Notes under the pieces: generated by a model
Told to the model about the DNA's origin: nothing
What the model saw: the letters and a program-made list of their open reading frames with translations, nothing else
Database searches by the model: none
Translations under genes and position numbers: made by a program
From: Candidatus Saccharimonadota bacterium
GTDB lineage: Bacteria > Patescibacteriota > Patescibacteriia > 2-12-FULL-60-25
Length of the DNA: 32,000 nucleotides
Assembly (NCBI GenBank): GCA_016699205.1
Contig: CP064964.1
Span: forward strand, 510,001 to 542,000
Reading direction: 5' to 3'
Shown here: piece after piece, positions 6,951-31,654 of the stretch
Layout of the letters: the number at the start of each line of letters is the position of its first letter
Position numbering within the stretch: the stretch's first letter is position 1

Positions 6951-7029
6951 TGGAGCGGGTGAGGGGAATCGATCGAACCCCTGTCAACAGGTTGGAAACC
7001 TGTGGTAATAGCCATTATACGACACCCGC
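6951..7029 (-). tRNA. tRNA-Gly (anticodon UCC), CCA encoded, with an atypical 11-nt T-loop
   Basis: Reverse complement: gcgggtg tc gtat aatggcta ttac c acagg TT-TCC-AA cctgt tgac agggg ttcgatcgatt cccct cacccgc t cca. The T-loop reads ttcgaTCGAtt instead of the usual 7 nt. Confidence 0.7.
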
Positions 7030-12377: not shown

Positions 12378-13103
12378 ATGCCAACACTTCCGGACCTCGG
12401 CCCGCTGGAAGAACGACTGGGGCACGCCTTCCGTGACCGCTCGATCCTCCTGCAGGCACTCACGCATCGATCGTTCTTGAACGAGAACGCCGACCATCCT
12501 TACCCGCACAATGAGCGTCTCGAATTTTTGGGAGATGCTGTTCTTGAATTGATCGTTACCGAATATCTTTTTAAGAATTACGCCAATGATGAAGGCGATC
12601 TTACCAACTGGCGTGCAGCTCTCGTGAATGCGATTACGCTGGCTGGTATTGCCCGCAACCTTCAATTTGAAGAATTCATTTTGATGAGCAAGGGCGAGGC
12701 TAAAGACAAGAATTCAAAAGCCCGTTTGTATATTTTGGCGAATGCGATTGAAGCGATTATCGGTGCGATTTATCTTGATGGCGGAACGCAGGCTGCTGAG
12801 AAATTCATTACGTCGCATATTCTTTCCCATTTGAAAAAGATTTTGGAAGATGAGCTGTACGTTGATGCGAAGAGTAAGTTTCAAGAGACGGCACAGGAAC
12901 TTCTTGGAACGACACCGACATACAAAGTCCTTGAGGAGAGCGGTCCGGATCATGCAAAAGAATTTACGATCGGCGTATATCTTGGGAAGGAATTGGTGGC
13001 CGTAGGAAAAGGCACGAGCAAGCAGGAAGCGCAGGTATCGGCGGCGGATGCAGGGTTGGATGCTAAGGGATGGAGAACGACGCCGGCGAAGAAGGATAAA
13101 TAA
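12378..13103 (+). CDS. rnc: Ribonuclease III
   Basis: The NERLEFLGDAVLELIV signature plus a C-terminal dsRBD (YKVLEESGPDHAKEFTIGVYLGKELVAVGKGTSKQEAQ). Confidence 0.9.
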   Translation: MPTLPDLGPLEERLGHAFRDRSILLQALTHRSFLNENADHPYPHNERLEFLGDAVLELIVTEYLFKNYANDEGDLTNWRAALVNAITLAGIARNLQFEEFILMSKGEAKDKNSKARLYILANAIEAIIGAIYLDGGTQAAEKFITSHILSHLKKILEDELYVDAKSKFQETAQELLGTTPTYKVLEESGPDHAKEFTIGVYLGKELVAVGKGTSKQEAQVSAADAGLDAKGWRTTPAKKDK

Positions 13104-13108
13104 CGAAT

Positions 13109-13140
13109 CGAGCCACCCAGTTTGGGTGGCTCGTGCTTTT
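13109..13140 (+). terminator. Intrinsic terminator of the rpmF-nusB-rnc unit
   Basis: cgagccaccc-agttt-gggtggctcg followed by tgctttt. Confidence 0.75.
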
Positions 13141-13150
13141 GCCTATCGGT

Positions 13151-13489
13151 CTATGGCCGACGTGCGCCGAAGGCAACTTTGAGAGGCTCACTTGAGCCGT
13201 CGAGACGGGATCGCAGCAGATCCAGAAACTCGTTGTCGAGATGACCGTCGAGATGCTTCAGCAAGCCCGTCATCGCTTGCGTCATGCCAAACGGGCTAAG
13301 CGAGAGCCAAGACCCGACCGTTGCGGGGGAGCTCTCCATGAGAGAAAGCCCTTTTTCCAGGTCACCGCGACAATGACCCTCTTGAAGAACTTGGAAAAGA
13401 GCGCTCGGTACCTCGAGCGTCCCGTTCACGACTCGCGCACCAAAATCCGTGGCATCGAACTTGAGTGAAGGGTTCTCTACGTAGCGCAT
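13151..13489 (-). CDS. Hypothetical protein (112 aa), GC-rich orphan
   Basis: ORF 13151..13516 trimmed to MRYVENP. AGGAGG lies 6 nt upstream of that ATG (aggaggatgacaATG). No family recognised. Confidence 0.55.
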   Translation of the reverse strand: MRYVENPSLKFDATDFGARVVNGTLEVPSALFQVLQEGHCRGDLEKGLSLMESSPATVGSWLSLSPFGMTQAMTGLLKHLDGHLDNEFLDLLRSRLDGSSEPLKVAFGARRP

Positions 13490-13714
13490 TGTCATCCTCC
13501 TATGAAACTTTGTCATTATTATTTAATACTGTCTAGACAAATAGAAAGACCCCAAATGCCTATTTTTTAGACACGGGGTCTTGGGATGGCAGCGTCAGGA
13601 AGGACCGATCTACCCACTTGCTGTTGCCTACCGAGCCCAGCTCGGCCTCCAGGTGACGAGAGCCCTCATCCAGCAAGCCTGAATGGAATATAGCTTGAAT
13701 AAGAAAATAGTCAA
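13490..13714 (-). promoter_or_regulatory. Promoter plus structured 5' leader (three-way junction plus terminator-like hairpin); candidate riboswitch or sRNA
   Basis: Minus strand: TTGACT (13709-13714), 16 nt, TATATT (13687-13692). P1 is gcttgctg/cagcaagt (13671-78 / 13616-23). P2 is gatgag-ggct-ctcgtc (13655-70). P3 is gccgagc-tgg-gctcggt (13630-46). A long hairpin, aagacccc-g-tgtcta-aaaaa-taggca-ttt-ggggtctt (13546-13582), is followed by tctatttgt and then the SD/ATG. All four helices contain G.U pairs that become A.C on the plus strand. Confidence 0.45.
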
Positions 13715-13763: not shown

Positions 13764-13838
13764 TGGTGTCCCGAGAGGGAATCGAACCCCCATCCCGTGG
13801 TTCGAAGCCACGTATTCTATCCGTTGAACTATCAGGAC
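13764..13838 (-). tRNA. tRNA-Arg (anticodon UCG), CCA encoded
   Basis: Reverse complement: gtcctga ta gttc aacggata gaat a cgtgg CT-TCG-AA ccacg ggat ggggg ttcgatt ccctc tcgggac a cca. Confidence 0.85.
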
Positions 13839-30426: not shown

Positions 30427-30583
30427 CTCATTATCAAGAGCGCAGACGAGGGTTTCTGGCCCAATGACTCTGCCGGCAACGTATCCATATGGACAACGTG
30501 CCAATTCCAGCCCTTATCGGGACAGATAACGAGTTCGAAATGGAATTTCATCGACTCTTCCGTCCACGGGAGAGCGTTTTTTT
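30427..30583 (+). promoter_or_regulatory. SAM-I (S-box) riboswitch with intrinsic terminator, upstream of metK
   Basis: ctcaTTATCAAGAGcgcagacGAGGGtttcTGGCCCaATGActctgCCGGCAACg...cGTGCCAATTCCagccc...gggacAGATAAcgag matches the S-box consensus. The terminator is ctcttccg-tcca-cgggagag plus cgttttttt (30555-30583). Confidence 0.85.
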
Positions 30584-30601: not shown

Positions 30602-31654
30602 ATGCCTTTATTGCCATCGACCTACACCGCCGAAAGCGTTACTTCCGGACATCCTGATAAAGTTTGCGATCAAATCTCGGATGCGATTCTTGATACGTGT
30701 CTCGCGCAAGATCCCACGAGCCGTGTGGCTGTCGAGTGTCTTGGCTCGCATGGGCTACTCGTCATCGCCGGAGAAGTTACAACGCGTGCGGATTTTGATG
30801 CGGAAAAAATCGCGCGAAACGTCTACCGTAAAATTGGTTATGAGGATGATTTGGAGGTACGGGTCCATCTCACCAAGCAATCGCCGGATATTGCGCAGGG
30901 CGTTGATCCGGGAGGCGCGGGCGATCAAGGAATTATGTACGGTTTTGCCACAGACGAAACGGCGGAATATCTGCCGATAGCTAGCGTGGAGGCGCATCGC
31001 CTTGCAAGGACACTGGAGCAGCTCCGCAAGAACGACGCCGCTTATCACTGGTTACGACCCGACGGAAAAACGCAGATCACCATTCAGGATGGGAAGATCA
31101 CAGACGTCTTGATCAGCACACAACATGCGATCGAAATAACGCAGGAAGAGATCGCGCGAGCGCTTGAGCCGTTGATCGATCCGATTTTGGAGAAAGGACA
31201 TAGACCGCGTTTCCTTGTGAATCCTACGGGGCGATTTGTCCTTGGTGGATTTACCGCCGATGCCGGATTAACCGGACGTAAAATCATGGTTGATACGTAT
31301 GGCGGTGTCATACCGCATGGCGGGGGCGCGTTTTCCGGAAAAGATGCGACCAAGGTTGATCGCTCAGCGGCGTACATGTGCCGGTTTGTGGCAAAAAATC
31401 TTGTGGCAAATGGTCACGCCAAGGAGTGCCTGGTTTCTGTTGCTTACGCCATCGGTATGGTTGATCCGCTGATGGTGTATGCCATAGACCAAGACCGAAG
31501 ACCTATCGACAAGCACTTACTTGATTCCTTTGATTTTCGGCCGACAGCTATCATGGAGCGGCTTGGGTTACGACAGCCAATTTTCCAACAAACTGCCGCG
31601 TATGGGCACTTTGGTAAGGCCGGATTGCCGTGGGAAGATGTCGTGGTATGCTGA
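30602..31654 (+). CDS. metK: S-adenosylmethionine synthetase (compact, 350 aa)
   Basis: ESVTSGHPDKVCDQISDAILD, GAGDQGIMYGFA, GGGAFSGKDATKVDRSAAY. Confidence 0.9.
   Translation: MPLLPSTYTAESVTSGHPDKVCDQISDAILDTCLAQDPTSRVAVECLGSHGLLVIAGEVTTRADFDAEKIARNVYRKIGYEDDLEVRVHLTKQSPDIAQGVDPGGAGDQGIMYGFATDETAEYLPIASVEAHRLARTLEQLRKNDAAYHWLRPDGKTQITIQDGKITDVLISTQHAIEITQEEIARALEPLIDPILEKGHRPRFLVNPTGRFVLGGFTADAGLTGRKIMVDTYGGVIPHGGGAFSGKDATKVDRSAAYMCRFVAKNLVANGHAKECLVSVAYAIGMVDPLMVYAIDQDRRPIDKHLLDSFDFRPTAIMERLGLRQPIFQQTAAYGHFGKAGLPWEDVVVC

Follow-up and report, generated by a model that had tools for sequence, protein, structure and literature searches.

A candidate stand-alone structured RNA gene, probably pseudoknotted, in Patescibacteria

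Introduction

Between a tRNA-Arg gene and rnc, a Patescibacteria genome carries on its minus strand a promoter-like site, a compact set of helices and a terminator-like hairpin, followed by a small open reading frame (ORF). Is this arrangement a leader that controls the ORF, as a preliminary description had proposed in calling it riboswitch-like, or is it an RNA gene in its own right? We address this question by computational analysis of the window, a 32,000-nucleotide stretch of DNA (positions 510,001 to 542,000 of contig CP064964.1, assembly GCA_016699205.1, Candidatus Saccharimonadota bacterium), together with other genomes and metagenomes. The genome is closed and 1.08 Mb long; its RNase III falls into a 90% cluster shared with a Candidatus Uhrbacteria protein, and the genes adjoining other copies of the RNA have matches in named Patescibacteria. 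All coordinates are those of the window, in which the neighbourhood reads as follows.

12378-13103, plus strand: rnc; nusB-rnc converge with the 112-aa ORF
13109-13133: bidirectional terminator-like hairpin between rnc and the 112-aa ORF
13151-13489, minus strand: 112-aa ORF with its ATG at 13489, a neighbour and no fixed partner of the RNA
13496-13501, minus strand: Shine-Dalgarno (SD) sequence of the 112-aa ORF
13764-13838, minus strand: tRNA-Arg(TCG), with its own terminator at 13761-13730

The RNA gene and the 112-aa ORF together form an insertion between the tRNA-Arg terminator and rnc. In five near-relative loci rnc directly adjoins tRNA-Arg, so that the site is empty, and in two others the rnc-tRNA-Arg site holds other cargo.

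Several side observations concern this setting. The hairpin at 13109-13133, of the form GAGCC...GGCTC, ends the insertion, and a very similar hairpin occurs twice around the insertion in G020, a genome of the same family (L022, near 1308 and 2040); the empty-site relatives have a different one. Locus L064 (G020:C54) is syntenic with the window, and its genome, placed in this Patescibacteria family, bears the record title 'uncultured Gammaproteobacteria bacterium'. Elsewhere in the window a SAM-I riboswitch scores above the gathering threshold at 30428-30532 (plus strand), 70 nt upstream of a 350-aa ORF (30602-31654), and a weak Rfam tRNA match (33 bits) lies at 6960-7024 (minus strand), where ARAGORN makes no call. 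Ser(GGA) and Gly(TCC) are missing from the ARAGORN tRNA list of the genome, and its tmRNA was detected by Rfam and missed by ARAGORN.

Results

The promoter that had been placed on the minus strand is present and near consensus: TTGACT-16-TATATT (13714-13687) scores 10/12, and the 1.3-kb region holds two sites of such score against 0.7 +/- 0.9 in shuffles. In all nine copies of the RNA described below, TTGAC stands 34-35 nt upstream of the RNA's first AG (34 in G029), a pentamer expected by chance at a rate of 0.0007 per site in the window genome; the -10 box of the homologues is weaker and more variable. Because the covariance models spanned the RNA only, with the promoter left out, this spacing lends independent support to the strand and the start. 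Judged from promoter spacing and folds, transcription would begin near 13680 and end near 13537, giving a product of about 144 nt in place of the terminated species of about 130 nt that had been expected. The parts of the RNA gene are listed here.

13709-13714, minus strand: -35 hexamer TTGACT, sigma-70-type
13687-13692, minus strand: -10 hexamer TATATT
13537-13680, minus strand: predicted transcript, from the conserved AG (13680 +/- 2) to the U-rich tail
13616-13678, minus strand: 5' domain, a three-way junction
13678-13671 with 13623-13616, minus strand: P1, whose first pair is a conserved G.U (one copy has A-U) and whose second is C-G
13655-13670, minus strand: P2 hairpin with a GGCU loop, drifting freely in length and sequence among copies
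13627-13653, minus strand: P3, consisting of P3a, a purine bulge and the variable P3b hairpin; 7-bp P3 helix at 13646-13630
13646-13650, minus strand: purine bulge GGAGG, with the family consensus GRAGG; would form the 5' strand of the pseudoknot
13588-13614, minus strand: 3' hairpin of 27 nt, with P4 (5 bp), a small internal loop, an inner helix and a 6-nt loop
13604-13599, minus strand: loop of the 3' hairpin, containing CCUUC, 3' strand of the proposed pseudoknot
13537-13582, minus strand: terminator-like hairpin (13582-13546) and imperfect U-tract

P1, P2 and the 7-bp P3 appear in both the MFE and centroid folds at the positions first assigned to them. Each contains a G.U pair, which had been taken to favour the minus strand, and the fold of that strand is indeed more stable, by 10 kcal/mol, than that of the plus strand (-59.6 vs -49.9). 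The strands joining the helices are present but not free, as CCU and AGG pair over 3 bp and leave a purine GGAG(G) bulge. By itself the junction is barely above chance in energy (z -1.8, matched in 8/200 shuffles); its reality rests on covariation. The architecture of promoter, junction and terminator hairpin also held, but it had overlooked the hairpin at 13614-13588 between junction and terminator, which is the best-conserved part of the RNA family.

A terminator-like hairpin stands where the preliminary description had placed it. The hairpin at 13582-13546 is strong (-19.8 kcal/mol, z -4.9, 0/200 shuffles), but its U-tract is imperfect and a simple terminator scan makes no call there. A terminator-like hairpin lies behind the core in every one of the nine copies: the window genome (G000), G020 and G436 have a single hairpin with a U-rich tail, and in the remaining six, one or two further hairpins (P6) precede it. 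When the window transcript was folded at four lengths, nested folds only, the terminator stem formed with a probability of about 1.0 at each, and no antiterminator competing with it was predicted.

Among the extra hairpins, those of L139, L140, L141, L149 and L166 include one with a self-complementary CCUAGG loop, a palindrome that could possibly support a kissing dimer. The terminator of L139, L140, L166 and L168 contains a conserved inner GAAA hairpin. Long intergenic hairpins in L126 (1254-1482 and 2233-2349) and L168 (1114-1282) drew spurious microRNA matches in Rfam and are probably palindromic repeat elements.

The family now comprises nine copies, that of the window and eight more, all in Patescibacteria and from at least two classes, with core identities of 52-76% except for the L139/L140 pair at 96%; three of the nine sequences are close kin. 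The G020 copy surfaced as a weak BLAST match lying exactly over the overlooked 3' hairpin, and its full locus keeps the fold in different letters: both partners differ in 8 of 32 pairs, and every pair is intact. A covariance model of these two copies recovered G436 (of which L138 is a repeat), a metagenome search with a pattern drawn from three copies yielded L139, L140 and L141, and a second model gave G029 as a weak match in which promoter, core and terminator are all present. A third model found G532 (E 5e-15) and G679 (E 7e-10), both absent from its training set and belonging to a different class. We did not count the weak model matches L137, L150, L165 and L167, in which no full core with promoter was seen, nor L179 (E 2). 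One further match, L142 244-330 (minus strand; E 5e-4), has a near-perfect 3' hairpin with GGAG upstream on a GC-rich, non-CPR-like contig without TTGAC, and is either a chance match or a distant relative, two readings between which we set no order.

Carriers are few: 4 of 127 genomes of the family, 2 of 35 in the family of G532, 1 of 149 phylum genomes and, with the second model, 0 of 149 other genomes of the class. Large genome searches score part of the candidates under strict filters, so these counts are lower bounds; two same-genus genomes that were scored in full have no copy, and each carrier shows one. A BLAST search with the element in 400 class genomes gave promoter-like or coding chance matches only, a 13-mer pattern (family) and a 15-mer pattern (300 class genomes) gave mostly chance matches at or near the level of the reversed-pattern control, and a pattern search of genome contigs returned the known G020 copy alone. 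Viral contigs (four scans), phage and plasmid collections yielded no copy, their matches lying in capsid or other coding sequence. Given the patchy spread, the empty sites and the single copies, the RNA gene is evidently accessory and appears to travel with its own promoter. Could it then be a mini-element, selfish or neutral, with a fold of consequence at the DNA level or only for its own spread? Patchiness and changing sites would suit such an element, as would the position beside a tRNA in two genomes and the similarity (75-76%) of copies at different loci (L139/L140 vs G532). We nevertheless consider this very improbable: there is one copy per genome, the G.U pairs and the promoter fix one strand, the aligned flanks show no terminal repeats or target duplications, and the viral, phage and plasmid collections gave no copy.

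Covariation in the homologues, proposed at the outset as a check on the helices, bears them out. In a model alignment of eight copies, which leans to its own structure, 95.7% of cells are paired against 34-43% in slid controls, and 22 of 30 pairs show compensatory change on both sides; in a hand-segmented alignment of all nine, set by eye, 247 of 250 cells pair. Unguided MAFFT/RNAalifold recovered the 3' hairpin and missed P1-P3, whose helices are of unequal length in the copies. The six upper positions of P1 all vary on both sides, P2 is not formed in L141, and P3a is CC/GG in all eight copies that have it (G029 does not). Little or no change is seen in the starting AG, in the first two pairs of P1 (G.U and C-G), in the CC/GG of P3a, in the GRAGG bulge or in the P4 hairpin and its internal loop. 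The RNA unit contains no shared ORF on either strand, and the window genome holds no exact 14-nt match to the RNA or its complement elsewhere.

In all nine copies five pairs are possible between the GRAGG bulge and YCUYC in the loop of the 3' hairpin (45/45 cells). Of these five positions the second alone varies: seven copies have G.U there, G436 has A-U and G532 has G-C. Since 42 of 45 cells also pair after a one-base shift of the register, a 5-bp pseudoknot is probable and not proven. The inner helix of the 3' hairpin has two possible registers, of which the one favoured by RNAalifold exposes YCUYC in a six-base loop.

The same loop could be put to a different use. In a trans-acting sRNA of the RsaE/RoxS kind, CCUUC/CCUCC would mimic the anti-SD tail of 16S rRNA and pair with the ribosome-binding sites of mRNAs, and the internal GGAGG would be a lock or a coincidence. 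A C-rich loop is indeed present, together with a conserved internal partner; it resembles the 16S tail of the genome (CCUCC), is exactly CCUCC in G532, and pairs with the SD of the 112-aa ORF at -6.8 kcal/mol vs -4.2 with the bulge. In most copies, however, it reads CCUUC, which is a poorer anti-SD; both changes in the bulge-loop pair convert a wobble to a Watson-Crick pair, a seed hairpin would need neither the invariant internal loops nor the three-way junction, and the genome offers no long complement. We therefore think an sRNA of this kind unlikely, though it is the leading alternative to the reading given below.

The neighbours bear directly on the opening question. In seven of the nine copies the downstream gene is convergent: trxB (G436), radA (G029), secA (G532, G679), a 97-aa gene (L140), hicA (L139) and a Mur ligase (L141), most of these names being read from translations. 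The two same-strand downstream genes, in the window and in G020, are unrelated to each other, and the one in G020 (146 aa) is preceded by a separate TTGAC hexamer, located past the terminator. A comparison of the regions upstream of orthologues of the 112-aa protein had been suggested as a check; the closest orthologue (60% identical) sits beside rnc with no RNA upstream and with its own TTGAC hexamer. The SD (13501-13496) and ATG (13489) of the ORF are where they had been reported, but the ORF is no orphan, as homologues were found in other genomes. Its family occurs in 5 of 127 family genomes, and the two sets of carriers overlap in the window genome and G029, where a distant homologue lies 3.3 kb from the RNA with recG between; three further family genomes have the protein without the RNA, and the protein was not found in four RNA carriers. 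We reject a functional link between the RNA and this protein family, since the two occur apart, and the sequences suggest that the 112-aa gene belongs to a small accessory protein family and is a neighbour only.

With seven copies convergent and the ORF found without the RNA, the RNA does not behave as a leader. Riboswitch character as a family property is largely refuted, and a riboswitch-like leader for the adjoining 112-aa gene finds no support, which in effect removes one false riboswitch candidate. An aptamer-like fold that covaries is there, and a same-strand downstream gene in most copies, a shared gene function and a competing structure were not found. A leader (riboswitch or attenuator) serving the downstream gene at least in the window genome has some points in its favour: promoter, aptamer-like fold, terminator and ORF follow in that order here and in G020, no convincing separate promoter precedes the 112-aa ORF in the window, a read-through transcript would allow the 3' hairpin to refold and pair with the SD of the ORF, and there is the distant homologue in G029. 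Set against the seven copies with nothing downstream to regulate, the unrelated G020 gene with its own hexamer, the largely separate distribution of the ORF family and the lack of a predicted antiterminator, we judge even this local role quite improbable.

As to the protein family itself, its members are scattered proteins of 105-126 aa (L127 908-1279, L172 1438-1785, L175 1172-1857, L176 1462-1842), and G483 has a tandem pair. It has no Pfam or NCBIfam match, and the 112-aa protein has no match in Atlas. We had presumed a likeness of the protein to papain prodomains, for which a search of longer proteins, a weak test, gave no support.

Does the RNA belong to a known class? Rfam 15 covariance models (riboswitches, ribozymes, raiA and sRNAs included), applied to the window and six homologue loci with gathering score and E-value thresholds, gave no match over the element (best E 2.1 in the window), in agreement with the earlier failure to fit any riboswitch or ribozyme consensus. 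Individual candidates were rejected on the following grounds. SRP RNA has no RF00169 match here, and a whole-genome search of the window genome found neither Ffh/FtsY nor SRP or 6S RNA; 6S RNA has no RF00013 match, and there is no long rod with a central bubble. tmRNA has no RF00023 match at the element, the genome's tmRNA lying at C1:498602-499024. Among five carrier genomes, Ro60 (TROVE), as for a bacterial Y RNA, occurs in one, on another contig; CsrA, as for a CsrB/RsmZ-type sponge, in one, and the RNA has one GGA motif; a reverse transcriptase, as for a retron or DGR RNA, in one, on another contig; and TnpB-type PF07282, as for an OMEGA RNA, in none, so that no partner protein emerged from these four families. 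A type III antitoxin was rejected because the RNA is a single unit, with no tandem repeats and no common downstream gene.

Could the RNA be a small ribozyme, self-cleaving or otherwise, from a class not yet described? Typical of small ribozymes are the size of its core (85-107 nt), the probable pseudoknot, the clustering of invariant nucleotides and the conserved G.U with which P1 opens. The G.U first pair of P1, also a mark of HDV-like ribozymes, is present in eight of nine copies, but the nested P2-P3-L3 order ahead of the 3' strand of P1 and the J4/2 catalytic C are absent by inspection, L3 varies freely and there is no P2 closure. In addition to this and to the lack of an Rfam ribozyme match, cleavage beside P1 would take no more than about 2 nt off the predicted transcript, and neither repeats nor mobile-element genes linked to the RNA were seen. 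A ribozyme is improbable in our view.

Discussion

With its own promoter, a terminator-like hairpin, covarying helices, no ORF and independence of its neighbours, the locus has the features of a stand-alone structured ncRNA, and we consider it very probable that it is a real RNA gene of this sort. What might such an RNA do? The invariant bases cluster at the proposed pseudoknot while the arms drift, which is the pattern of RNAs that work through their shape, and there is nothing to regulate in cis, so a role as a binder in trans is our best guess. We propose that the GRAGG bulge of P3 docks on the YCUYC loop of the 3' hairpin, and that the resulting 5-bp pseudoknot would unite the invariant positions at the base of P1, in P3a, in the bulge and in the internal loop of P4 in one compact core, with P2, P3b and P6 as free peripheral arms. 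The RNA would then most likely act as a decoy or scaffold for a protein or small molecule, and not on its neighbour. Its gene may move at the DNA level together with the promoter and land in intergenic sites; the 112-aa gene, unrelated cargo in the same tRNA-Arg insertion, may be fed by read-through of a leaky terminator. On present comparisons we find this reading, an accessory stand-alone ncRNA that binds a protein or small molecule in trans by a compact tertiary fold, reasonably probable.

The next question is why cells would keep such a gene at all. Patescibacteria genomes are stripped, that of the window showing no SRP or 6S RNA, and the strong promoter and the covarying, probably pseudoknotted fold have been kept across two classes, so selection on this optional RNA gene is likely. 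A bolder reading, which we put forward with considerable doubt, is that of a new small pseudoknotted RNA class, mobile among Patescibacteria, with an activity of its own: either a ligand-sensing or catalytic core working in trans, or an SD:anti-SD mimic that opens to expose its anti-SD loop. Compact three-way-junction pseudoknots of such size are a class that has yielded new aptamers and ribozymes. The RNA is short enough for in vitro synthesis, and the alignment names both the nucleotides and the tertiary contact to be examined.

Several known RNAs offer partial parallels. The glycine riboswitch aptamer, like the window RNA, folds as a three-way junction in which P3 starts with CC/GG and an internal loop is rich in purines. 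In the window RNA, by contrast, that loop is one-sided with no opposing UCA strand, there is an extra hairpin, probably pseudoknotted, no Rfam match was found, and no glycine genes lie nearby. ZTP (pfl) and class-II cobalamin riboswitches use base pairing to join an internal loop in their 5' domain to the loop of a hairpin that stands apart on the 3' side, and a terminator follows. The topology proposed here is the same, but there is no sequence or Rfam match, the terminator stands apart from the core, and most copies have no regulated gene. sRNAs of the RsaE/RoxS type have their own promoter and terminator and a C/U-rich loop that pairs with SD sequences. The window RNA has a predicted promoter and terminator of its own and a C/U-rich loop that could pair with an SD; it differs in having a three-way-junction core and a conserved partner for the loop within the RNA itself.

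Searches of a literature collection, itself incomplete, found no description of such an RNA in CPR bacteria. The closest parallels are the stand-alone structured ncRNAs. The distance and orientation of the genes beside the raiA motif RNA vary, which spoke against a riboswitch in that case, and that RNA acts in trans (PMC10861870); OLE, ROOL and GOLLD are other stand-alone structured bacterial ncRNAs of unknown function (PMC12286853). The window RNA differs from the raiA type in finding no Rfam match, in having a core of 85-107 nt vs about 200 nt, and in being found only in Patescibacteria, in a few percent of genomes. Like raiA, OLE, ROOL and GOLLD, it combines covarying helices, a probable pseudoknot and many invariant unpaired nucleotides, and it occurs in single copy beside neighbours that differ in identity and orientation from locus to locus, a pattern that speaks against regulation in cis. 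By these marks it is apparently a new family of a known kind, a stand-alone structured RNA of unknown function.
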